From the UHGV virus genome UHGV-0138835: 48,857 nt of DNA, one strand, 5' to 3'. Positions 13,448-32,787 of this stretch are shown piece by piece; the stretch's first letter is position 1, and each line of letters opens with the position of its first letter. The DNA is from a virus. The position numbers and the translations under genes were made by a program. The notes beneath the pieces are model-generated. The model saw only the letters and a program-made list of their open reading frames with translations, did not search any database and was not told where the DNA came from.

Positions 13448-14191
13448 CTACTTACACGCAAAAAGTTCAGATACCCAAAGCTGCCCCTTAGCGGTAAATA
13501 GTGATTGGACGTAACCTTCAGCCGAACATTTTACCACTCCATAGCCTTTTTCTACGAACCACTGTTTGAACATACGCCCACCGCGCTTAATTCGCGTATC
13601 GTACACGTCAACCTGTTCAAGTTTTTTGTTGAGTTGCGTAGCAGTCATACCCAAAGGCTTAGCGACCTGTGTAGCGTTGCGATGCTGTTCGTTTTTTGCA
13701 ATAGCATTATAAACAGCCGCTTTCGGTGCTAATTCCTTATTTTCCAGCGCCAGACGATCAACTTCTTTCTGTGCTAATAGTTTTTGCTCTACCTCATCCG
13801 CCCATGCGCGAGCAGCCGCAACCGGATCAGTGAAGTCCGGCAAAGCTGGTTTAAAACCGTAATGTCCATTTTCACGCAAAGCAGGGAGAACTTCTTCACA
13901 CACCCAATCCTGGAAGCGCTCAGCAAATTCTATTTTTGATCGCATCACAAGGCGGTACATATCTGATTCATGAATTAGCGTTACGCCTTGCGGTTTAGGG
14001 TCAAAACCCAAACACTGCATTTCACCGTATTTGATTTTAATCAATGACTTACAATGTTGTTTTAGAGCGTCCGCAGGTCTGATATACCCCAAAGCCCGCG
14101 CCACATCCATTGCAACAAAAGCAGGTTTACCATCATAAATTACAGCAGTGATTTTATTGTCATCAAAATTAAAACACATCAACTCAGACAT
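13448..14191 (-). CDS. antirepressor, Bro-N / KilA-C domain protein
   Basis: N-terminal Bro-N signature (FNFDDNKITAVIYDGKPAFVAMDVARALGY); start taken at ATG 14191 with GGGGAA SD. Confidence 0.7.
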   Translation of the reverse strand: MSELMCFNFDDNKITAVIYDGKPAFVAMDVARALGYIRPADALKQHCKSLIKIKYGEMQCLGFDPKPQGVTLIHESDMYRLVMRSKIEFAERFQDWVCEEVLPALRENGHYGFKPALPDFTDPVAAARAWADEVEQKLLAQKEVDRLALENKELAPKAAVYNAIAKNEQHRNATQVAKPLGMTATQLNKKLEQVDVYDTRIKRGGRMFKQWFVEKGYGVVKCSAEGYVQSLFTAKGQLWVSELFACK

Positions 14192-14323
14192 TGTAATTTC
14201 CCCGCAAAACGCTCTACAACGCAAAAATCCCACCGCGTAACACGTTCGCACATGTTGCAGTGTATTATTGCGCCAGAGGCGCTATCAGGTGGCTAATTTT
14301 TGATTTACAGACCGGTAGGTAGG

Positions 14324-14425
14324 TTATGGATTGACTAGAAGGAACAAACCGCCGAATAAGGCGACGTTAACAGCGATTGCCGCAGCGATGGCAAAAGCCA
14401 TGGCGAAAACGTGTTTACCGTCCAT
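14324..14425 (-). CDS. possible micro-ORF (33 aa), hydrophobic single-helix peptide MDGKHVFAMAFAIAAAIAVNVALFGGLFLLVNP
   Basis: Read by hand in the gap between the antirepressor and replication genes; weak SD. Confidence 0.25.
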   Translation of the reverse strand: MDGKHVFAMAFAIAAAIAVNVALFGGLFLLVNP

Positions 14426-14558
14426 TTTAAAATTCTCTCTGTAACGCTCTATAACGAGCTAATCGCAAAAAGGTAAGCAAGTATAGCACCACATGCGATT
14501 TATCTCGCTGGCGAGCTTGTTTTGCTGGTTATTTTGGGTTTTTGTGGATCGTGGTTAG

Positions 14559-15611
14559 TCAAAGAGCGCCAGCGCGTGTATCGCGTAGCGTTTTTGGTTT
14601 AAGCAGGAAATCAAGTGTCGCAGTGAAGCCATCGCCGAAGTAAAAATCTGAAGCCTTGTTTTTGAATGCTTCGAAGTAGGCGATAAAGCCGTTAATGCTT
14701 TTGTCTTTCAGGTAGTCAGTGAACGCATAGATCTTGCGTTCAAGATCCCGATCAAGTTCAGCAGGTGGCAACAGGCCGTCAAACGTGATGTTAAACTCTT
14801 CCACCACATCGGCAGCGTTTACAGTAGCTGATAGCTTGCGCCATTGTTCAGCGTCAGCCAGATACCCATCGAATTTAGTTACCCGGCAAATGTTAACAGG
14901 CTTAGGTGTTCCGCCACGGCTACGCCATTGCGTTAAAGCCCACTCAATCACTAATGTGATCTCATCCTCCGTATATGCTTTACGTGTTTTTGTTTCTGTC
15001 AGTAGTTCGATGAACGGTTTAGCATCACGACATTTACATCCTGCCTTGTCGTTGTAGAATGCCAGGCAACGCAATGCCGCTTCGTTTACGCCATCCTGAT
15101 TGAACATTTTTTGTTCATTTTCGACAATACACGAAGTGTATATATCTTTTTCTCTTTCTTTTTCTATTTCTAATTCTAATTCATGACCCTTTCCTGACCC
15201 GGTCATGACCCTATCATGACCTTTTTGTGTTGGATTGATTAACTTTTCTAATTTTAATTGCTCCTTCGCTGTGTTTATGGCGGCCCTGTAAGCGCTTTTA
15301 GAAGTCATTGATTGGTCCAGCCTTTTCAATAACTTTAAACAAGTTATGTGGCCTTGAGAACATTCAAACAAACCAATTTCGATGAAGTATTTCATCATTT
15401 CTTCTATACGTTTTTCAGTAGATCCGACGTTTCGCGCAATTATTCTTGCGTCATGTCGTAGGTCAAAAGTTAGATTGTGCTGATCTACGTCATAAGTTAT
15501 TAGTTCTAGGCAATACCAATAAAGCCCGTATCCTTCCAGTCCATAATCTAATAAAACGTTTTGAAGTTTTTCATCGCGGTTCGCATCGCTATCATGCTTA
15601 AACCACTTCAT
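14559..15611 (-). CDS. replication initiation protein (replisome-organizer-like N-terminal domain), contains internal iterons
   Basis: N-terminus MKWFKHDSDANRDEKL…GLEGYGLYWYCLE typical of phage replisome organizers; iterons in the linker region. Confidence 0.6.
   Translation of the reverse strand: MKWFKHDSDANRDEKLQNVLLDYGLEGYGLYWYCLELITYDVDQHNLTFDLRHDARIIARNVGSTEKRIEEMMKYFIEIGLFECSQGHITCLKLLKRLDQSMTSKSAYRAAINTAKEQLKLEKLINPTQKGHDRVMTGSGKGHELELEIEKEREKDIYTSCIVENEQKMFNQDGVNEAALRCLAFYNDKAGCKCRDAKPFIELLTETKTRKAYTEDEITLVIEWALTQWRSRGGTPKPVNICRVTKFDGYLADAEQWRKLSATVNAADVVEEFNITFDGLLPPAELDRDLERKIYAFTDYLKDKSINGFIAYFEAFKNKASDFYFGDGFTATLDFLLKPKTLRDTRAGAL
15138..15221. repeat. putative origin of replication: AT-rich tract plus four 9-bp iterons (TCATGACCC / TCCTGACCC) at exact 11-bp spacing
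   Basis: Iterons at 15181, 15192, 15203, 15214, immediately after the tract tatatatctttttctctttctttttctatttctaattctaat; located inside the initiator gene as in lambda O. Confidence 0.5.
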
Positions 15612-16946: not shown

Positions 16947-16975
16947 TTGACTCGATGTTATACGGGGAGTATATT
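16947..16975 (+). promoter_or_regulatory. candidate sigma70 early promoter (pL-like): -35 TTGACT, 17-bp spacer, -10 TATATT
   Basis: Hexamers and spacer read directly; upstream of the nut site and the N-like gene. Confidence 0.5.
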
Positions 16976-17110: not shown

Positions 17111-17401
17111 ATGAGCGTTACAATTATGTATGGAAAATGTGATAGCAAAATGAACGCCAGGGAACGCAGAAGGATAAAAAGAGAAAACGAAAGAAAATCA
17201 TCACCTGCAATTAATAAAACAGACAATGTGGATAAAGCTATTCGATTTGCAAACGAGGAAAGGTGCAAACCAAATAGCATTAAAGAACGTCGCAAAGGAT
17301 CAGTAAAATGGTATACGGAAAATGAAAGCGGCAGCTACTACCACGCAACGCAACCACGCCATTTAGGGGAGAAACCCCTGGATAAAGTCCGTTACCATTA
17401 A
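17111..17401 (+). CDS. N-like transcription antitermination protein (P22 gene 24-like)
   Basis: N-terminus MSVTIMYGKCDSKMNARERRRIKRENERK resembles recalled P22 gp24 (MTVITYGKS…AKTRRHERRRKLA) with an arginine-rich motif; first gene after promoter and nut. Confidence 0.6.
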   Translation: MSVTIMYGKCDSKMNARERRRIKRENERKSSPAINKTDNVDKAIRFANEERCKPNSIKERRKGSVKWYTENESGSYYHATQPRHLGEKPLDKVRYH

Positions 17402-23103: not shown

Positions 23104-23587
23104 CAGGTTACTGGCCTGCGTTTATGTCGCCGTTTTCGTAATCATCAACCTAATTGTTAACCATTGCGGCCCGTGGGTAATTCCGATCACCACGGTAGCC
23201 GCTGTGTGTGTCAATATGATGATCCGTGACTTCCTGTTATATGACGGCGGCCTGAAATGGTCGGCTACAACATGCGCCGCCGCTGGCGCAATCACGGTGC
23301 TGATAAATTACGATGCTGGAATGGTGGCGATTGCGTCATTCGTTGCGGTTGTTTCCGGTGCGCTTATTTCTGGCGGCGTTTACCGGGTTTTACCTGGTGA
23401 TTTCGATTCGAAACGATGGCCTGCAAATATAGCTTCAGCCATCGGTGATGCGTTGATTTTCCCTACGCTATCGTTCATGGCATTTATGCCTGAAATATCA
23501 GCTATGCAGTTCATCTCAAAAATGGCAGCGGTAACGGTGATCACTATCATCATGCGCCGCTATTTCACGTTTGAGGGAAGAAAATGA
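23084..23587 (+). CDS. integral membrane protein (~167 aa, multiple TM helices); very tentatively VUT/YhhQ-like
   Basis: Strongly hydrophobic; weak resemblance to recalled YhhQ segment (AS..G[DN]…F…F.AF); start at ATG 23084. Confidence 0.4.
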   Translation: MKKVTIDRLLACVYVAVFVIINLIVNHCGPWVIPITTVAAVCVNMMIRDFLLYDGGLKWSATTCAAAGAITVLINYDAGMVAIASFVAVVSGALISGGVYRVLPGDFDSKRWPANIASAIGDALIFPTLSFMAFMPEISAMQFISKMAAVTVITIIMRRYFTFEGRK

Positions 23588-24111
23588 ATTGGGAAGATTA
23601 TTTTATATACAATCCAGACACGGGTAAATTGTACTGGAAATGTAGAAATGATATAGATGAATCAAGGCGTAAACAATGGAATGCGTGCAACGCTGGTCAT
23701 GAAGTTGGATATATTGGCGGTAGCGGTGGTTATCTTAACACAGCGCTTACCGTAGGCGGGAAGCGTTATAATTTAAAAGTTCACAGAATATGTTATGAGA
23801 TGTACTATGGCCCAATACCTGAAGGTAAGGAGGTTGATCATATAAATCACATTAAAACAGACAATCGAGCCGTCAATCTTGAATTAAAAGACCATAAAGA
23901 TAATATGCGCAATATGTCTTTGATGGTAAACAATACCAGTGGATGCGCTGGTATCCATAAAAATAAACATGGTAAATGGGTTGTTAGAATAGGCGGAGGC
24001 AAAAGAGGCGAGAGGGTTTATATAGGGTGTTTTTCTGATATTAATGACGCAATAAAAGCACGACGCGACGCTGAAAAAGAGTATGGCTATCATGAAAACC
24101 ACGGCAAATAG
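23584..24111 (+). CDS. HNH homing endonuclease with AP2-like DNA-binding domain
   Basis: HNH core HRICYEMYYGPIPEGKEVDHINHIKTDNRAVNLE and AP2-like GIHKNKHGKWVVRIGG…YIGCFSDINDAIKARRDAE. Confidence 0.8.
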   Translation: MNWEDYFIYNPDTGKLYWKCRNDIDESRRKQWNACNAGHEVGYIGGSGGYLNTALTVGGKRYNLKVHRICYEMYYGPIPEGKEVDHINHIKTDNRAVNLELKDHKDNMRNMSLMVNNTSGCAGIHKNKHGKWVVRIGGGKRGERVYIGCFSDINDAIKARRDAEKEYGYHENHGK

Positions 24112-24370
24112 AACAACCCGCCAGCCGCCGCGCGGCTTTGCCAGTGCTGTATTCCTTGCTAACGACCGGGCCATCACGCGTACTACGCTCAACCGCGTTT
24201 TACCGGACTAAAGTTTACAAAATGGCGTCATTGCGTGATGTGGATCACATAATGGCGATTTTCACCTTGTTCTGACGTATCCATTTTGTATACTTCAAAC
24301 AAGAAAAATGCTCTTTAAAAATCCGGTAGCGCTGAAATGCGTAGAAATCACCTGAAAAGGAGAGAGCATT

Positions 24371-25571: not shown

Positions 25572-25750
25572 AAAACGAAGTTAAAGATCTGCAAATAGAT
25601 ATTCAGCGCGATGAGCATGATTTAGCTACAGTCCGACAAATACAGGCTTTTCACATGAGAGAACTGCTTGCGCTGAAAGAGCTTGAAAGAAAGTTGGTCC
25701 AGTCAATATCTGATCGCAAAAGACTGGTTGCGCGTTACAGGGGAAAATAA
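25568..25750 (+). CDS. hypothetical protein (60 aa)
   Basis: ORF translationally coupled between rusA and Q. Confidence 0.3.
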   Translation: MKNEVKDLQIDIQRDEHDLATVRQIQAFHMRELLALKELERKLVQSISDRKRLVARYRGK

Positions 25751-26472
25751 TGAATCTGGAATCAATTCTTAAATTCCACTTCCCAAAATCACCGCGTTTG
25801 TCAGATGAAAGCCGGGGCACGTCCCCGGATGCGCTTAATACCACGGACGCACTAACTGCCGCAGGTATGGCGCAATCGCGCGTAGAGCTTGGTTATAGCG
25901 CTTTTTTGGGGAAGATGGAACTATCACAAGCCGAAAAACATAAGGCCGTAGTTTTGCTTACAGAGCGTTTAAGGGCTATGGCAAAAGATTATGAATACGT
26001 CATGGAACTGGACGAGGCCAAACGCAATGATCTCATTATTCTTGTTGCCGTTTTCGCGTTTCGGGATTATTGCCAGAGTGCAGCGACCGAAAAAGTTTGC
26101 CCGGAATGCGGCGGATATAAATTTACGTTTGACGAATACGGAGAAAAACACCTTTGCAAAAAATGCAAGGGGCATGGGAAAGTTCTTAATCATTGTAAAC
26201 AATGCAAGGGCCGTGGCGAAGTGCCGGATAAAGCAGCCAGCGAAGCGGCGGAAATGCCAGTATTCAAAACGTGTCAGCATTGCGGCGGGCGCGGGTACTC
26301 GCGTTTCCCTGTAGATCTCGTTCGGCAGGCTGTCAATCAGCTTGTCTTTCCGGTAAGCCGATCAACATGGTGGAAGAAATACCGCGCTTTCTATGAAGAC
26401 GCCATTGCTGAATTGTTCAAAGAAGAGGTGCGGGCAGATAACGAAATTAAACGAGTTACGCGGGGTGAATGA
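25750..26472 (+). CDS. Q: late-gene antitermination protein Q (lambda Q family)
   Basis: N-terminus MNLESILKFHFPKSPRLSD closely parallels recalled lambda Q (MRLESVAKFHSPKSPMMSD); Cys-rich zinc-binding region. Confidence 0.8.
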   Translation: MNLESILKFHFPKSPRLSDESRGTSPDALNTTDALTAAGMAQSRVELGYSAFLGKMELSQAEKHKAVVLLTERLRAMAKDYEYVMELDEAKRNDLIILVAVFAFRDYCQSAATEKVCPECGGYKFTFDEYGEKHLCKKCKGHGKVLNHCKQCKGRGEVPDKAASEAAEMPVFKTCQHCGGRGYSRFPVDLVRQAVNQLVFPVSRSTWWKKYRAFYEDAIAELFKEEVRADNEIKRVTRGE

Positions 26473-26672
26473 TGGATAAGCTGGAAATAAACGATCAGTT
26501 TGCTGTTATCTTGTTCGAAGATAAAACAGGCGGTGCATGGTGTAAGAAGGTCACTGGTGCGGAAGCGCGATTAATATTGGGTATGGCAAGCGCGTTAAAC
26601 GAAGGCGAATTGCCAGCCGTACCAATTGAGCCAGTTCATATTTACGGACGGAGCAAAGACAATGAAGCCTAA
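26469..26672 (+). CDS. hypothetical protein (67 aa)
   Basis: ORF overlapping Q stop (ATGA). Confidence 0.3.
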   Translation: MMDKLEINDQFAVILFEDKTGGAWCKKVTGAEARLILGMASALNEGELPAVPIEPVHIYGRSKDNEA

Positions 26673-26931
26673 ATTAAAGGAACATCTATTTGCAAAGCTG
26701 GTCAATGACCTGACGTTATCAGCGCGGTTATGTCGTGATACGCAACAATTGAGGGCGTGGATAGCAAGAGATTTAAAAAAATATATTGAGCCTGGCGGGC
26801 CAGGTGGCGAAATCACAATGGACGAGGCCATTAAACGCCGTTCGGCTGAATGGTCAGTTAGTAACACTGGTTTAACCGGATACATTGAAGGCTATAACGA
26901 CTGTTTACAGGATCATAGCGATGGCAAGTAA
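26662..26931 (+). CDS. hypothetical protein (~89 aa)
   Basis: ORF; start at internal ATG 26662. Confidence 0.3.
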   Translation: MKPKLKEHLFAKLVNDLTLSARLCRDTQQLRAWIARDLKKYIEPGGPGGEITMDEAIKRRSAEWSVSNTGLTGYIEGYNDCLQDHSDGK

Positions 26932-27220
26932 AGACCTACATTTGAACCTGAAAGGGGAATATTTCCACGCCATATTGACCGGAAAGAAGGTGGAGGAATA
27001 CCGGCTTTATAATGACTATTGGCGTAAACGTCTGGAAGGGCGGGAATATGAGCGCCTGATTATTAAATGGGGATACCCTGCCAACCACGAAAAACACAGG
27101 ATTATTAACCTTCCTTATTTTGGGTACGAAGTAAAAACTATCACACATCCATTATTCGGCCCTGATCCTGTTAAGGTATTCGCAATTAAATGTAACAGAA
27201 ATTGGATGTTGAGAGGTTAG
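26921..27220 (+). CDS. ASCH (PUA-like) domain protein
   Basis: GxKxxExR signature (TGKKVEEYR) in a ~100-aa protein. Confidence 0.45.
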   Translation: MASKDLHLNLKGEYFHAILTGKKVEEYRLYNDYWRKRLEGREYERLIIKWGYPANHEKHRIINLPYFGYEVKTITHPLFGPDPVKVFAIKCNRNWMLRG

Positions 27221-27435
27221 AAATGAAAAGTAACCGTAAACGCCTTGTAAGGGCATACGATAAAGCATTAAAGGCTTTTGATGATCTGCGACGCAATAAG
27301 CGCCAGCGCCGAAAATGGGCGCGTATGCTTGTAAGGGAGTGGCATAGCGAGGACTATTTCCTTGATGCCAGGCACATGACGCAGGATGTAGCGGACGCAT
27401 TAGCTGATGAGAACGTTTATTATATGATGTGGTGA
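27202..27435 (+). CDS. hypothetical basic protein (77 aa)
   Basis: ORF in operon. Confidence 0.3.
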   Translation: MDVERLEMKSNRKRLVRAYDKALKAFDDLRRNKRQRRKWARMLVREWHSEDYFLDARHMTQDVADALADENVYYMMW

Positions 27436-27439
27436 TAAT

Positions 27440-27805
27440 ATGCAAATAATCATTGATTATCTTTGCCATGCTGCAAATACAGTTTTTGGCATGTATCAAC
27501 AACCATTCCTGAAGGAATGGGATGATATGCTAAACGACATCCTCGACAAAGGATTAATAATGGAGGTTGACGAGCTTACAATCAAATTTAATTATGATGG
27601 TGAAATTTATCTAATTTGGGTCGGGAATAGATGGTATTCATACGGTCATATTTATTCAATTGGTGGTAAGTTCATTAAAAGAAACCAGGAGTTCAGACCG
27701 CGCTTCCGCACAATGCGCCGCCTGCATGATCTGCATATGAAGTTATTCGAAGATCAGGAAGCACGGGAATTATTCAAAATTTACGGGGATAAATCATGGA
27801 GCTAA
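27440..27805 (+). CDS. hypothetical protein (121 aa)
   Basis: ORF in operon. Confidence 0.35.
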   Translation: MQIIIDYLCHAANTVFGMYQQPFLKEWDDMLNDILDKGLIMEVDELTIKFNYDGEIYLIWVGNRWYSYGHIYSIGGKFIKRNQEFRPRFRTMRRLHDLHMKLFEDQEARELFKIYGDKSWS

Positions 27806-28026
27806 AAATCTGGCAGGCTATCGACGTAGTTGATAATGAATTGTCTATGTTCGCCACTAACGGGAAACGCGTTGTGATCGCTACATGGACACGTAACCAT
27901 GATGATATTGCTTTTCGTCGCGCTGCGGCGGAATTGCTTTTCTCTGATGGCGGCTACACGATGAATATCGCACAGCTTGCCAGAATGAAAGATGAAATAC
28001 TGGTGGACAGCTACACAACTGCATAA
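27796..28026 (+). CDS. hypothetical protein (76 aa)
   Basis: ORF in operon. Confidence 0.3.
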   Translation: MELKIWQAIDVVDNELSMFATNGKRVVIATWTRNHDDIAFRRAAAELLFSDGGYTMNIAQLARMKDEILVDSYTTA

Positions 28027-28036
28027 CGGGGTGAAT

Positions 28037-28270
28037 ATGCGTATCTATGAGCACAAGCGGGATAAAACCCGCTTTTTTGTTCGTGCTGGCGTGGCGTACT
28101 GGTATCACGAATGCGGATACATTGAGGCGCTTGCTTACGACCTTGATTTTGAGCAGGAAAAGGAATGGTTCGATTTTAAAATTTACCGGAAGCGCAAACC
28201 AACTCGCGACGAGCGACACGCTATCCGTGACTTTTTAATCAGTATTGAGCGCTGGGGGACAGAAGAGTGA
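28037..28270 (+). CDS. hypothetical protein (~77 aa)
   Basis: ORF; start at ATG 28037 with GGGGTGA SD. Confidence 0.3.
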   Translation: MRIYEHKRDKTRFFVRAGVAYWYHECGYIEALAYDLDFEQEKEWFDFKIYRKRKPTRDERHAIRDFLISIERWGTEE

Positions 28271-28494
28271 AAGTAAAATTCTTGCACGATCACGGTTATC
28301 CGTCGCTGAAACAGGTTGTTGGTAAGGTTGTTAACGTAGTTCATAGCGATGATGTTACTTGCATGATTAACGGTGCTGACCTAATTGCCGCTGGCGCTGA
28401 TGATCATTACATAAATCCGGCATGGTCGTATACGTTCAGCCTGAGTGACTTCGTTGGCGACAAGGGGCGCGGGCTGGAAGTAGTCGAGGGTTAA
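28267..28494 (+). CDS. hypothetical protein (75 aa)
   Basis: ORF in operon. Confidence 0.3.
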   Translation: MKVKFLHDHGYPSLKQVVGKVVNVVHSDDVTCMINGADLIAAGADDHYINPAWSYTFSLSDFVGDKGRGLEVVEG

Positions 28495-28498
28495 TATC

Positions 28499-28741
28499 AT
28501 GGACGTTTACGAAGATCTATACCTTCAGACGAATACCCACACTTTTTATTTTCTGAAAAACGGCGTCGTATATCGCAGTGACGACGGGGTAATAATGAAA
28601 GAATGGTTATTTAAGCGTAAAGACCTACTCGACGATCTGGTTTTTGCCGGGATATTTCGTAAACGTCCGGCTAACCTGGAAGAAGAAATGTTGATAGAGG
28701 TATATCAAAATGAAAATCAGGGTAAGTTATTTCCGGGCTAA
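28499..28741 (+). CDS. hypothetical protein (80 aa)
   Basis: ORF in operon. Confidence 0.3.
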   Translation: MDVYEDLYLQTNTHTFYFLKNGVVYRSDDGVIMKEWLFKRKDLLDDLVFAGIFRKRPANLEEEMLIEVYQNENQGKLFPG

Positions 28742-28763
28742 AGATAAGGCAACAGGAAAGCAG

Positions 28764-28961
28764 ATGGCGATCCTGGTTAACGAGGCCAATTATATGTTTG
28801 TACTTCAGCCGTGGTGCATAGCTGACTATAACGATGATTATCGTCGTCACGGTGCGCGGGGTGCTGTAGGCATGAAAGGATGGCAACCGCGCGACATGGA
28901 AAACTATTGTGAATGGAAATTGATAGCAAAATATACGGTCGATTATAAAGGGGTTTTCTGA
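28764..28961 (+). CDS. hypothetical protein (~65 aa)
   Basis: ORF; start at ATG 28764 with AGGAAA SD. Confidence 0.3.
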   Translation: MAILVNEANYMFVLQPWCIADYNDDYRRHGARGAVGMKGWQPRDMENYCEWKLIAKYTVDYKGVF

Positions 28962-28979
28962 TAGTGGTGAGGTGGTGTT

Positions 28980-29186
28980 ATGCAGGTTAAATGTGTCGAA
29001 TCAAATAGCGGCGTTTTTGTAGTCGATAAGATTTATCACGTCTATCAGGTTTTGGGCGTTGACTGCGATGAAAGAGATCAAGTGTTAATTGATGAAGATG
29101 GCGACCCGTGGAAATTCCTATATCGCTACGCCAGCGGCGGCGATGTTATTGGTATTCGCCTTCGTGCAAAATTTGAACTATGTTAA
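28980..29186 (+). CDS. hypothetical protein (68 aa)
   Basis: ORF in operon. Confidence 0.3.
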   Translation: MQVKCVESNSGVFVVDKIYHVYQVLGVDCDERDQVLIDEDGDPWKFLYRYASGGDVIGIRLRAKFELC

Positions 29187-29195
29187 GGTTTAATC

Positions 29196-29495
29196 ATGAA
29201 AAGCGATAAATTCATTGCGTGCTGTTTTGTTGAAGTGCCTAAAGGTGATGTTTTCTGCAATTATGAATTTAAAGACAGTTTAGGCCGATCTCATGTTGTA
29301 GTTGGTAAGCGCGGAGACTGGTTATACATCACTGATGGTGACAGGATCTTCACCAAAAACCAGTTATTAAGAATAAAGGCAGAAAATAATGAAATACCTG
29401 TTGGCAATATGGGGATTATGAACTACCACGCTGGTTTATCGTTAAAACACGATGCGGTGAATAAAGCGCGTAGCTTGCCTGGTGCTGAATTTTAA
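29196..29495 (+). CDS. hypothetical protein (99 aa)
   Basis: ORF in operon. Confidence 0.3.
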   Translation: MKSDKFIACCFVEVPKGDVFCNYEFKDSLGRSHVVVGKRGDWLYITDGDRIFTKNQLLRIKAENNEIPVGNMGIMNYHAGLSLKHDAVNKARSLPGAEF

Positions 29496-29518
29496 TTTCT
29501 TACGAAGGAGAATAACAA

Positions 29519-29842
29519 ATGTCTAAATTTATCAGCGTTAAGGTTTTCCGTGGCACTTTTCCAGAAGATGAGAAAAATGGACAATTCGCAGGACAGCCTG
29601 GCGCATGTTTCCGTGTAGCCACTGATGACGAAGCTAACGTCAAGTGCTTCCATGTATCTGAACCTCCTTTTGACGTGAAACATCTTGACGATGCAAATCA
29701 CGTTAAACATTTTGTTTTCGCATCTGTGGTGCTAAATCCTTGCCCTGATGCTGAAGTGGAATTACTTGGGGCTGAACTGGTTGCGGAATATAAAATGACT
29801 GAAGGAGAAGAGGGGGGAATTGAAATTGAGCGCATCAAATAA
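29519..29842 (+). CDS. hypothetical protein (107 aa)
   Basis: ORF with SD AAGGAG upstream. Confidence 0.35.
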   Translation: MSKFISVKVFRGTFPEDEKNGQFAGQPGACFRVATDDEANVKCFHVSEPPFDVKHLDDANHVKHFVFASVVLNPCPDAEVELLGAELVAEYKMTEGEEGGIEIERIK

Positions 29843-30077
29843 GCTGTATAAAGTCAGGTGTAAAGGAGAATACCCAGGCTTTACGATTGGTTGCGAATAC
29901 CTGGGCCACATTGGGTACGGACCTTTCGGTGAGTTGGGGATGAATACAATGGACGACGACGGCGACAGCCGGACGCTTGATCTTGATTCTGATGATTTCG
30001 AATACATCCCGCCAGTAACTTACCGTGCCGTTGATGATTTCCTGGCTGAACATGAAGACGAGGACGATGATGATTGA
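29820..30077 (+). CDS. hypothetical acidic protein (85 aa, C-terminal EDEDDDD)
   Basis: ORF in operon. Confidence 0.3.
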   Translation: MKLSASNKLYKVRCKGEYPGFTIGCEYLGHIGYGPFGELGMNTMDDDGDSRTLDLDSDDFEYIPPVTYRAVDDFLAEHEDEDDDD

Positions 30078-30264
30078 ATGCCTTATTGCTGTTATTGTTT
30101 TGCTTTATATCGCTGGCGCGATCCTGATGTCATGTTTTATTAAGTATAGCGGCGCTGAACCTGGTGGCCTCGAGATTCCTTTATGGCCTGCAGTGATGTT
30201 TCTCGCTTTCTTCGATGCTACGGTGGAGCAAATCAGGCGAGCTATTAAGGAGCGCAAGAAATGA
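30067..30264 (+). CDS. small membrane protein (~65 aa)
   Basis: Hydrophobic helix IECLIAVIVLLYIAGAILM; start at ATG 30067. Confidence 0.3.
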   Translation: MMIECLIAVIVLLYIAGAILMSCFIKYSGAEPGGLEIPLWPAVMFLAFFDATVEQIRRAIKERKK

Positions 30265-30443
30265 TCGAAGATGGTGTATACGCCGCAACAGTAGTAGACG
30301 GGTTGTTTTACCGCGTAGAAGGTGATGATATTCGCATTCGCGTTGGCGGTGGTGAGTGGGTATCGCCAATCATTAAGACGACACGAGAAACAATTAAAAT
30401 ATTTCTTGATGCTGGTGAACTGGCGAGGGTTAGCGACCTATGA
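30261..30443 (+). CDS. hypothetical protein (60 aa)
   Basis: ORF in operon. Confidence 0.3.
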   Translation: MIEDGVYAATVVDGLFYRVEGDDIRIRVGGGEWVSPIIKTTRETIKIFLDAGELARVSDL

Positions 30444-30616
30444 ACGAGATCGAAGATGGTATCTATTTGCACATGTTATTTAGCATCGCCTATTTGGTTA
30501 AAGGTGATAAGGTAATGACACAAAGCGCGGGCAATAAATATTGGGAATCAAGCGGCATGGATCGCGAACATATGCAAACATTGCTTGATAATGGCCTGAT
30601 ATACAGAAAGCAGTAA
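30440..30616 (+). CDS. hypothetical protein (58 aa)
   Basis: ATGA overlap with upstream gene; below ORF-track cutoff. Confidence 0.25.
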   Translation: MNEIEDGIYLHMLFSIAYLVKGDKVMTQSAGNKYWESSGMDREHMQTLLDNGLIYRKQ

Positions 30617-30624
30617 ATCCGTAT

Positions 30625-30653
30625 TTGTAGGGCGTAAACAAACAGATTAAAAT
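30625..30653 (+). promoter_or_regulatory. candidate late promoter (pR'-like): -35 TTGTAG, 17-bp spacer, -10 TAAAAT
   Basis: Hexamers read directly; ~30 nt upstream of a terminator hairpin and the lysis cassette. Confidence 0.4.
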
Positions 30654-30681
30654 ATTTCCTAACAATGCGAAATTGTAATTA

Positions 30682-30703
30682 CCCGGCCCAGCGCCGGGTT
30701 TTT
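30682..30703 (+). terminator. rho-independent terminator hairpin just upstream of holin (tR'-like)
   Basis: cccggc-ccagc-gccggg followed by TTTTT; SD GGAGG and holin ATG follow. Confidence 0.5.
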
Positions 30704-30723
30704 GCTTTGTTGGAGGTAAATCT

Positions 30724-30924
30724 ATGTTCGACAGAATACGGGAGGCGTGTGCGTATGTGACTGGTGCAGTAACCGCTTTTTTCGGTGCTATAACCATCAA
30801 TGACGTTGCAGTGTTCGTTGGTATCTTATCAACCATTGGCACATTTGCCGTTAATTATTACTTCAAATCACAGGAGAACAAGCGAGCGCAAGAGGAACAC
30901 GACGCGCGAATGGGGAATAAGTAA
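30724..30924 (+). CDS. holin (pinholin-like, two TM domains)
   Basis: 66 aa, two hydrophobic helices, basic C-terminus, directly upstream of a SAR endolysin as in phage 21. Confidence 0.7.
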
Positions 30925-30925
30925 A

Positions 30926-31417
30926 ATGATTAGCCAATCGCTGAAAAACAAGATTGTTGCGGCGGCGGCTGGTGGGGCGATCGCTATTGCGGCGGTGATG
31001 GTAAAAGATCTTGAGGGTGTGGAGTACAAGGCATACAGAGATGTCATCGGTGTTTACACGATATGTTATGGACACGTCGGGAAAGACATCATGCTTGGTA
31101 AGACTTACACGCAATCAGAATGCGATGCTTTGTTAAATAAAGATCTGCACAAGACCGCAAAAGCGATTGACCCATATATCAAAGTCGAAATATCAGATTT
31201 TACCCGCGCAGCACTTTATTCATTCGCCTATAACGTAGGCGCTACCAATTTCAAAACATCAACCTTATTGAAGCTACTCAATGACGGCAAGAAATCAGAG
31301 GCGTGCGCACAGCTTAAACGCTGGGTATACGCTGGCGGTAAGAAGTGGCAAGGCCTGGTAAACCGCCGCGAGGTTGAATATGCCGTTTGCGAATGGGGTG
31401 AAACATGGACAAGGTGA
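30926..31417 (+). CDS. SAR endolysin (GH24 lysozyme with N-terminal signal-arrest-release domain)
   Basis: Close match to recalled phage 21 R21 (GGAIAIA…LEGV.Y…[28 protein letters not shown]……YSF.YNVGA.NF.TSTLL……W.YAGGK.W.GL..RRE.E). Confidence 0.85.
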
Positions 31418-31875
31418 AGACGTTAATCATCGCCGTTGTTGTTTGCATTATTGCCAGCCTTACAGCCGTAACGTGTTATTACCAGGGTGAGGCAGCAAGG
31501 TTACAGGAAGAAGTCACGGTAACGAAAGGCGCACTGAAAACGGCAAGTAACACTATTCAGCAGATGAAGGAGCGAAACGCCGAACTGTCAAAACTTGATA
31601 AGAGGTATCACGATGAGATTAAAGCTATCAGATCTGACATTGCCGATCTGCGCACTGGCATTGATAACGGCACTATCAGGCTGCGCGTCAACGCAATACC
31701 CGTGCGAGTGTCCGACCCCGCCGGAACCGCCAGCGCCATTGATGGAGCCGCCTGTAGACTCACTCCCGACGCTGAATCGGCTTATCTATCCCTCAGAGAA
31801 CAACTAAAAGAGAAAGATGCGAAGATAACCGCGCTTCATGGCTACATCAAAACGCAGTGCTTACGCAAAGAATAA
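31405..31875 (+). CDS. Rz: Rz i-spanin
   Basis: N-terminal TM helix then coiled-coil periplasmic domain; contains embedded +1-frame Rz1. Confidence 0.75.
31613..31807 (+). CDS. Rz1: Rz1 o-spanin (lipoprotein embedded within Rz)
   Basis: Lipobox ITALSGC, proline-rich mature peptide, ATG 31613 with AGAGG SD, fully inside Rz in another frame. Confidence 0.7.
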   Translation: MRLKLSDLTLPICALALITALSGCASTQYPCECPTPPEPPAPLMEPPVDSLPTLNRLIYPSENN

Positions 31876-32202: not shown

Positions 32203-32787
32203 ATGGCTAAGGCTAAAGGCATTAAGTTGCCTCAATTCAAAGTCCCGCTCTTTGAGCATACAACCGTTTTCTTTTGCCCGACCCGCGAGATGTTCTATGA
32301 ATTTTGCGAAAAGGCAGGGATCCCAATCGAACCTGATTTCGAACTGGCAGGGGGATTAACACTTACTTGCACTGGCGAGAAAGGCGGTAACTTCTATGTG
32401 ATCGCAGTATTCGACAATGAGTTAGGAACGCTGGTACATGAAGCGGCGCATACCACATTCCATGTTTTAAGCGATGTAGGCGTCGTTGCAACTACAGATC
32501 CAAGCCATCCGGCAAACGAGACTTATGCTTACATGGTGGGCCGTATCTTTGATGCATTTTTCCCCATCCTGGCAGAATCAAATGAAGCACAGGTTGCAGC
32601 AATGCAGGCCGCTGAAGTCGTAGAGAAGGCATTAGAACAGGCAGAAAAGGCGACTGATGCAGCAGAACAGGCAGTGGAACAGGCAGAGCAGCCGAAAGAA
32701 GAGAAAAAACCAGCTAAGAAAGGCAAACGTAAGCCTAAAGCAAAAGAAGCGCTTGTACCGCGTGTTATGAGCTTTAAACGGGGGTGA
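32203..32787 (+). CDS. HExxH-motif protein with Ala/Glu/Lys-rich C-terminal tail (possible zinc metallopeptidase)
   Basis: LVHEAAHTTFH motif; low-complexity basic C-terminus; between lysis cassette and micro-ORF array. Confidence 0.5.
   Translation: MAKAKGIKLPQFKVPLFEHTTVFFCPTREMFYEFCEKAGIPIEPDFELAGGLTLTCTGEKGGNFYVIAVFDNELGTLVHEAAHTTFHVLSDVGVVATTDPSHPANETYAYMVGRIFDAFFPILAESNEAQVAAMQAAEVVEKALEQAEKATDAAEQAVEQAEQPKEEKKPAKKGKRKPKAKEALVPRVMSFKRG

Follow-up and report, generated by a model that had tools for sequence, protein, structure and literature searches.

The viral genome UHGV-0138835, whose 48,857 nucleotides are referred to here as the window (the whole stretch of DNA that was analysed), carries a block of small genes between its lambda-family antiterminator gene Q and its lysis cassette. 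This island is a group-specific array of accessory genes, in which a conserved spine (o5–o10) is surrounded by variable cassettes; these come and go, are duplicated, or are exchanged with other phages. It covers positions 26469–30616 and is formed by 17 consecutive plus-strand open reading frames (ORFs) of 58–121 amino acids, which we number o1 to o17; Gp17, Q, the lysis genes and the regulatory elements located below are likewise on the plus strand. Of the interval, 98.3% is coding, neighbouring ORFs either overlap by 4–53 nucleotides or are separated by at most 23, and a Shine–Dalgarno-like motif precedes most of the starts. The stop codon of Q and the ATG of o1 overlap (ATGA), leaving no intergenic space there, and the sole non-coding stretch is 30617–30723. 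The right flank is formed by an HP1-type holin, a lysozyme and a spanin.

The same 17 genes had been called independently on two public contigs that carry this island, and one of these two, a metagenome contig (ENA ERZ27289313 k141_49484), is 100% identical over it. A PHROG family was matched by 15 of the 17 genes, every one of these families being labelled as of unknown function. The ratio of nonsynonymous to synonymous substitution rates (dN/dS) is 0.06–0.33 for 16 of the ORFs, compared with 0.11–0.12 for Q, holin and lysozyme; the values are pairwise between the window and 12 relatives, hence not phylogenetically independent, and o11 was too divergent to be scored. Since gene calls, PHROG matches and dN/dS agree, the island ORFs are real genes under purifying selection and not chance ORFs. 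The first-pass annotation of the window had described about 17 tightly coupled small genes between Q and the lysis cassette, and the ORF listing, the independent calls and the dN/dS values bear this out. Likely corrected starts are 26662 (o2), 26921 (o3), 27223 (o4), 28037 or 27992 (o7) and 30070 (o15). The minus-strand ORFs within the island were treated as shadows, the selection signal sitting in the plus-strand frames. The GC content is 0.42–0.47 in the island and 0.45–0.49 in the flanks, with no discontinuity, and GC skew shows no break between 16 and 31 kb. Scanning the full window for Rfam families and tRNA genes gave no matches.

The window is an mEp021-like (mEpimmI) Escherichia coli phage. 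The mEpimmI phages were described in 2025 as Nus-dependent, non-lambdoid coliphages (PMC11893012). The island and its flanks are 86–92% identical in DNA sequence to mEp021, mEp010, mEp013, mEp044, mEp515, mEp554 and MagusPhagus. Prophage matches with 84–90% identity were found in 35 of 5,426 complete E. coli genomes, and neither Q nor the conserved promoter-like block described below was matched in 185,579 GTDB species-representative genomes. The runs of hypothetical proteins in these phages (gp38–gp45 in mEp021) are the same locus, with the same flanks (Q, terminator t5 and holin) and the same gene order; with mEp044, mEp554, MagusPhagus and mEp010, 74–90% of the island aligns at 86–90% DNA identity. 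With 17 genes in 4.1 kb, the island of the window is mid-sized, as mEp021 has 8 genes in 1.9 kb and prophages reach 28 genes in 7.2 kb. In the mEpimmI paper only gp41 of this region was remarked on (PMC11893012).

For the comparative anatomy, 12 annotated relatives and 45 IMG/VR loci were used, which gave 56 loci with both ends and 50 distinct island sequences. The island sits between a lambda-type Q and the holin in all 56 loci. Its length in the 50 distinct islands is 1,928–7,178 bp (median 5.4 kb), with 8–28 ORFs (median 21). The gene order is fixed, the differences consisting of presence or absence of cassettes, duplication or allele replacement. The genes o6, o7, o9 and o10 are present in all 50 islands, o5 in 49 and the o16/o17 family in 48. 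Each ORF of the window belongs to a family that is present in at least 36 of the islands, so that the window has no unique gene but only a divergent o11 allele. The pan-island set comprises 42 ORF families with an accumulation curve that is still rising; about 28 of them occur in at least five genomes, and a number of singletons (38–54 amino acids) are probably spurious. These counts rest on a simple longest-ORF caller, in which one shadow ORF displaced o7: the third family of the clustering was discarded as an alternative-frame ORF shadowing o7 and not a separate gene. Short N-terminal HHalign matches between families (f17–f37, o1–o2, o3–o4 and o2–f25, where f denotes a pan-island family) were likewise rejected, as artefacts of longest-start calling that runs into the upstream overlapping gene.

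Several island genes evolve quickly. The dN values of o3, o12, o13 and o15–o17 are 0.15–0.22, 4–7 times higher than those of Q and lysozyme (0.03–0.04), and the dN/dS of the variable genes (0.18–0.33) is above that of Q and lysozyme (0.11), with the exception of o3 (0.10). The families of o3, o4, o5, o8 and, weakly, o15 are common to unrelated phages, whereas o9, o13, o14 and o16 were found in this phage group alone. Two islands carry a PAPS-reductase-like (PP-loop) protein of 239 amino acids, for example locus L022 at 14041–14760 (IMG/VR UViG_3300001919_000001; Pfam PF01507, 4e-8; PHROG label 'moron/AMG'), and therefore the hotspot can also accept enzyme-sized cargo. The locus has what characterizes an accessory region (AR) in the concept of Silas et al. 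(bioRxiv 10.1101/2023.04.06.535777): bounds that are conserved in 56 of 56 loci (Q on one side; the promoter-like block, t5 and holin on the other), variable content, and exchange of small, fast-evolving genes with unrelated phages. It differs from their ARs in lacking a known counter-defence gene, such as ocr, ral or abc2, from which function could be argued by association, and in that about a third of its genes are never missing. The idea of a cargo hotspot, put forward in the first-pass annotation, is thus right as to variability (8–28 ORFs, 42 families in 50 islands), but roughly one gene in three belongs to the core of the group and is not cargo, and one, o9, has as its homolog an mEp021 protein detected in virions by mass spectrometry.

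The non-coding stretch before the holin contains a late-promoter-like block (30636–30680) with a −10 hexamer TAAAAT (30648–30653) and the motif AACAAT (30661–30666). Its core, GATTAAAATAyTnyCTAACAATGCGAA, is invariant in the 50 distinct islands and unique within the window. The block occurs once per locus, 79–89 bp before the holin and 1.9–7.2 kb after Q in all 56 loci, and 278–286 bp before the lysozyme gene in the 54 loci that reach this gene. In lambda pR', TAAATT is followed after 6 nucleotides by AACGAT at +1 to +6, which is the pause-inducing element for lambda Q; in the window the spacing between TAAAAT and AACAAT is 7 nucleotides. From this resemblance we infer a pR'-like promoter, although its −35 is weak and a Q-binding element is not identifiable in the block. 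Starting 15 nucleotides past AACAAT there is an intrinsic terminator (30681–30707), whose stem (30681–30699) has 7 bp with 6 GC pairs and is followed by a T-run (fold z −3.4). It corresponds to t5 (TERM_5) of mEp021, which is listed among the experimentally demonstrated terminators of that phage (PMC11893012). In 45 of the 50 islands the region was picked up by a fixed-length search (five gave no match), and in all of these the stem is unchanged, while loop and flanks vary. The late-promoter and terminator pair that had been noted at the far end of the island therefore holds for the terminator, which is real and conserved, and less well for the promoter, which has an invariant −10 but a weak, non-conserved −35 and was not called by the consensus scan. 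Promoter-like sites within the island are at chance level (17 versus 18.1 expected). As a side observation, if the block were a constitutive promoter, the terminated RNA would have about 45 nucleotides, from 30661 to about 30705; the pR' of Shiga toxin (Stx) phages makes the regulatory small RNA StxS in like manner (PMC7547250).

A second conserved terminator-like hairpin, which the first-pass annotation had missed, lies within the 5' end of o7 (28055–28082). Its stem (28055–28074) has 7 bp with 5 GC pairs and a T-run follows (RNA fold z −4.2). The hairpin is present in all 50 islands and is un-annotated in mEp021. Just two stem changes were observed, and neither disrupts the pairing: in one, G>C is compensated by C>G, each substitution being synonymous, and the other gives a G.U pair. 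That the hairpin could be a tR' served by its own pR'-like promoter was rejected, as there is no acceptable −35/−10 pair in 27960–28054 and the motif of the holin-proximal block is unique in the window. Within o7 an alternative-frame ORF of 63 amino acids (28047–28238) is open (38–71 amino acids) in the 50 distinct islands; this probably reflects the very low divergence of o7 and not an overlapping gene.

Upstream of the island the window carries elements resembling those of the early operon of mEp021. A candidate early rightward promoter (TTGACT-17-TATATT, 16947–16975; 10/12 match in the consensus scan) may be placed there by analogy with the repressor/gp17 region of mEp021. It precedes the gene of an N-like early antiterminator (17111–17401) with an arginine-rich motif, ARERRRIKRENERK, which is 94% identical to mEp021 gp17; the antiterminator function of Gp17 and three nut sites have been reported for mEp021 (PMC11893012). 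A nutR2-like site (24309–24342) can be read from its motifs, boxA TGCTCTTTAAAAA (24309–24321) and a boxB-like hairpin (24328–24342). The segment 24204–24371 matches, at about 97% identity, the stretch of mEp021 that separates t4 from ninF, which is where nutR2 was placed in that phage (PMC11893012). Homologs of ninF, ninG and rusA lie directly upstream of Q (25750–26472; Pfam PF03589, 1.4e-28, 99 bits against a cut-off of 26.7; phrog_127).

On balance, we think it probable that in mEpimmI phages the rightward delayed-early operon, antiterminated by the N-like Gp17, extends beyond Q into the island, and that the island proteins act as small binders. Both the transcription pattern and the functional class we infer from the sequence. 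Transcription would initiate at the early promoter near 16.95 kb, and Gp17 with Nus factors would make the polymerase terminator-resistant at the nut sites, the last being nutR2 at about 24.3 kb. The polymerase would then cross ninF–ninG–rusA–Q and the 17 translationally coupled genes as one unit, passing through the o7 hairpin. At the pR'-like/t5 block, Q made from the same transcript would load onto RNA polymerase for expression of lysis and late genes. Production of the island proteins would thus coincide with that of Q and precede that of the late proteins. The Gp17 homolog, the nutR2-like sequence and the uninterrupted same-strand coding fit a delayed-early operon. Because the sole pR'-like/terminator block lies downstream of the island in all 56 loci, the island is most likely part of the early operon, and the Q/o1 overlap together with the holin-proximal block makes such an extension the best reading of the array. 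The order Q, island, holin is also that of Stx phages, in which stx stands between Q and the lysis genes (PMC6266700), a recognised site of variable cargo, and one could think of the island as late, Q-dependent cargo, read from a late promoter immediately 3' of Q together with the lysis genes. We regard this as improbable: Q and o1 overlap without intergenic space, no promoter-plus-terminator pair was found at the Q-proximal end by consensus and terminator scans, the conserved block is holin-proximal whatever the island length, and the window has no tRNA genes. The stx genes are downstream of pR' and Q-dependent (PMC6266700, PMC7547250), that is, 3' of pR'/tR', whereas here the cargo is 5' of the pR'-like/t5 block and comes without tRNAs, toxin or recognisable payload. 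Hence the 'stx-locus-equivalent' position proposed in the first-pass annotation is correct in that the island lies between a lambda-family Q and the holin, lysozyme and spanin genes, and is not supported with respect to the block, of which it is upstream and not downstream. A closer parallel to the early-operon extension is the nin region of lambda, a set of dispensable delayed-early genes in the pR operon, with packed same-strand small ORFs 3' of a nutR site and co-transcribed with Q, as would also be the case here. The nin region lies between P and Q, however, whereas the island lies after Q, and none of the 17 genes is of a known nin family. The distance from Q to its target is also different: about 80 bp from the Q stop to pR' in lambda, and 2–7 kb to the presumed site here.

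As to function, island products most likely bind host or competitor macromolecules, by analogy with other accessory regions, and would serve host takeover, counter-defence or exclusion; a typical enzyme role is unlikely because they are too small. This class rests on the hotspot behaviour, the small protein size and the accessory-region concept rather than on specific homology, which in our opinion makes it a reasonable prior. Some findings weigh against the early-operon and small-binder reading. The −35 of the late-promoter-like block matches the consensus at three of six positions at best and occurs in two unrelated alleles, the consensus scan failing to call the promoter. No anti-defence, defence or host-takeover family was matched by the 17 proteins in Pfam, NCBIfam and PADLOC, nor was there any PHROG function label. 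Moreover, o6, o7, o9 and o10 are universal and the o9 homolog is found in virions, so part of the block may serve core rather than accessory phage functions. With the further pan-island families included (17 genes and 10 families), Pfam, NCBIfam and PHROGs gave no functional label, the one PAPS-reductase-like protein apart, and no known counter-defence gene. It is also conceivable that these are morons, that is, lysogenic-conversion or prophage defence genes that a repressed prophage expresses for the host's protection or advantage. Genes for defence or exclusion are frequent in prophage hotspots, o15 encodes a small membrane protein, and the PAPS-reductase-like gene with its 'moron/AMG' label stands at this site in two relatives. 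We hold this to be rather unlikely, as none of the 17 genes has a PADLOC match, gene-specific promoter/terminator pairs are lacking in genes that are same-strand and translationally coupled, there is no GC anomaly, and 58–121 amino acids is far below the typical size of a defence effector.

More weight can be given, tentatively, to the idea that the spine o5–o10, and perhaps o17, has core developmental roles (regulation of late transcription, lysis timing, DNA or RNA binding, or virion association), the block being only partly accessory. Four spine genes occur in all 50 islands and o5 in 49, their dN/dS is low (0.06–0.13), the conserved hairpin in o7 suggests a regulatory use, and gp41 of mEp021, the homolog of o9, was detected by mass spectrometry (MS) in purified virions and is conserved in the mEpimmI group (PMC11893012). 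Against it, no homology to structural, replication or regulatory families was found, and the MS signal of an 80-amino-acid protein encoded outside the structural cluster could be carry-over, as Ssb was likewise detected in the same virion study (PMC11893012). Nor does the structural model of o9 (AlphaFold2, predicted local distance difference test, pLDDT, 60) suffice for a RegA-like protein, an idea published for gp41 that the model neither supports nor refutes. It is quite possible that core roles of the o5–o10 subset and the early-operon extension hold together. A bolder version of that extension would make the locus an arms-race site of early small binders, several of them (o14, o11 with its relatives f20 and f37, and o16/o17) being new counter-defence or host-takeover proteins; Q would be uncoupled from its loading site by a hypervariable insert of 2–7 kb, and the distal half would be gated by the o7 terminator and depend on N-like antitermination. 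We find this possible but doubtful.

In kind, the locus belongs to the accessory regions of phages; its nearest functional counterpart is an early block of small ORFs like nin, and it is already present in published mEpimmI genomes. It is a sensible target for screening and not a surprise. The mEpimmI phages are reported to be as common as lambdoid phages in human-gut E. coli (PMC11893012). The block makes up about 15–25% of mEpimmI genes, none with known function, and the comparative map, by separating conserved spine, variable cassettes and paralog families, guides which genes to study first. With the island placed ahead of the late switch, its genes are predicted to be expressed early, as counter-defence genes usually are, and the comparison with Stx cargo is altered. 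The separation of 2–7 kb between Q and its loading site, the terminator embedded in o7 and the paralog expansions are unusual, the first two being small oddities of interest for research on antitermination.

Three island genes have some character: o3 for its ASCH fold, o15 as a small membrane protein and o14 as a strongly acidic one. The protein o3 (26921–27220, 99 amino acids) was the only one for which a recognisable signature, ASCH/PUA-like, had been claimed, and fold comparison and motif support it, no other island gene having a Pfam or NCBIfam match. The Pfam ASCH profile (PF04266) matches o3 below threshold (E 0.012, 16.7 bits versus a gathering threshold of 21.2), over the first 25 profile positions, that is, the motif region only; at E ≤ 0.1 it matches 28 of 56 o3 homologs, the best at 0.0016. 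The GxKxxExR motif of o3 is GKKVEEYR, and its residues K23, E26 and R28 do not vary among the 56 homologs, in which G21 hardly varies either. Sequence and profile searches of the PDB with o3 gave no significant match. Fold comparison alone succeeded, with a PUA-like beta-barrel for which the best structural matches are all ASCH proteins. The ASCH proteins, such as the E. coli N4-acetylcytidine (ac4C) amidohydrolase YqfB, ZmASCH and PH0355, have the motif and the PUA-like beta-barrel in common with o3. At the level of the fold, o3 is therefore supported as an ASCH protein, which would bind RNA or modified bases. It is found in 331 phage records, including P22-like, Stx, HK022, Ralstonia and Klebsiella phages, and in the P22-like, Stx and HK022 phages its homologs adjoin eaA.

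Around o3, the left part of the island begins with the acidic o1 (26469–26672, 67 amino acids; phrog_35000, 1e-40; dN/dS 0.10; 46 of 50 islands) and o2 (26662–26931, 89 amino acids; phrog_29262; dN/dS 0.14; 44 of 50). The basic o4 (27223–27435, 70 amino acids; phrog_8758) is present in 47 islands with up to 2 copies, being duplicated in some relatives, and has homologs in Salmonella Sasha-like phages, which are siphoviruses. The spine starts with the largest protein, o5 (27440–27805, 121 amino acids, alternative start at 27527; phrog_16975, 4e-55), for which homologs exist in Edwardsiella phages. It is followed by two core genes, o6 (27796–28026, 76 amino acids; phrog_38280), which in mEp021 directly follows Q, and o7 (28037–28270, 77 amino acids, or 92 from 27992; phrog_30442), present in all relatives and the most constrained island gene (dN/dS 0.056). 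The next gene, o8 (28267–28494, 75 amino acids, GTG start; phrog_5009; 41 of 50 islands), has homologs with 42–47% identity within small-ORF arrays of rV5-like myoviruses. The core gene o9 (28499–28741, 80 amino acids) is 94% identical to mEp021 gp41, annotated as 'virion structural protein'; its alignment has little depth, with 52 clusters at 66% identity or more, and its model gave no meaningful Foldseek match. The spine ends with the basic core protein o10 (28710–28961, 83 amino acids; phrog_38609).

The distal part begins with o11 (28980–29186, 68 amino acids; phrog_31142, 6e-8), a divergent member of a diversified paralog superfamily of 68–97-amino-acid proteins located in the central variable segment of the island. 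Its identity to relatives is about 40% in the first 12 genomes, and HHalign relates it to f20 (96%), f37 (79%) and, more weakly, f22 and f28. Some genomes have up to four or five tandem members of this superfamily, relatives being found for example at L002 5537–5997, L010 4748–5041 and L007 4626–4913. No PHROG was matched by o12 (29196–29495, 99 amino acids; dN/dS 0.18; 36 of 50 islands). Two group-restricted acidic proteins come next, o13 (29519–29842, 107 amino acids, net charge −9; phrog_23107; dN/dS 0.24) and o14 (29820–30077, 85 amino acids, TTG start; phrog_25234; dN/dS 0.11), the latter with an isoelectric point of 4.1, a net charge of −15 and a C-terminal EDEDDDD. Hydropathy, with hydrophobic windows, characterizes o15 (30070–30264, 64 amino acids; phrog_10061) as a small membrane protein; it is the fastest-evolving scored gene (dN/dS 0.33) and has a weak homolog in an rV5-like phage. 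The last two genes, o16 (30261–30443, 60 amino acids; phrog_15318, 5e-32) and o17 (30440–30616, 58 amino acids; phrog_15318, 7e-25), are tandem paralogs with 32% identity (E 2e-6), whose family has 1–3 copies per island.

Regarding the neighbouring genes, Q is 35% identical to lambda Q over 238 amino acids (E 1e-47), including the zinc-binding C-terminal domain, and matches PDB 7ubm (1e-38) and 4mo1. Compared with lambda Q it has a 31-residue insertion (residues ~117–147) with two extra CxxC pairs and a weak match to a DnaJ-type zinc-finger Pfam family, which suggests an additional zinc ribbon. The stretch 30620–30647, the expected site of a −35 or a Q-binding element, has two unrelated alleles, CCGTATTTGTAG... 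and CCATAATCGCGC..., which do not track the Q protein variants. The lysis cassette (30724–31875) is composed of holin (30724–30924; Pfam Phage_holin_2_3, 7e-15), lysozyme (30926–31417; Phage_lysozyme, 3e-44) and spanin (31405–31875; Phage_lysis on the identical contig). Just 5' of the nutR2-like site there is an ORF for an HNH_3-type endonuclease (23584–24111, 175 amino acids), where mEp021 has a cytosine methyltransferase; it may be a homing-endonuclease replacement. Between spanin and terminase lies an ORF of 194 amino acids (32203–32787; phrog_1365, unknown function), homologous to mEp021 gp49, whose C-terminal tail is alanine/glutamate-rich and lysine-rich.

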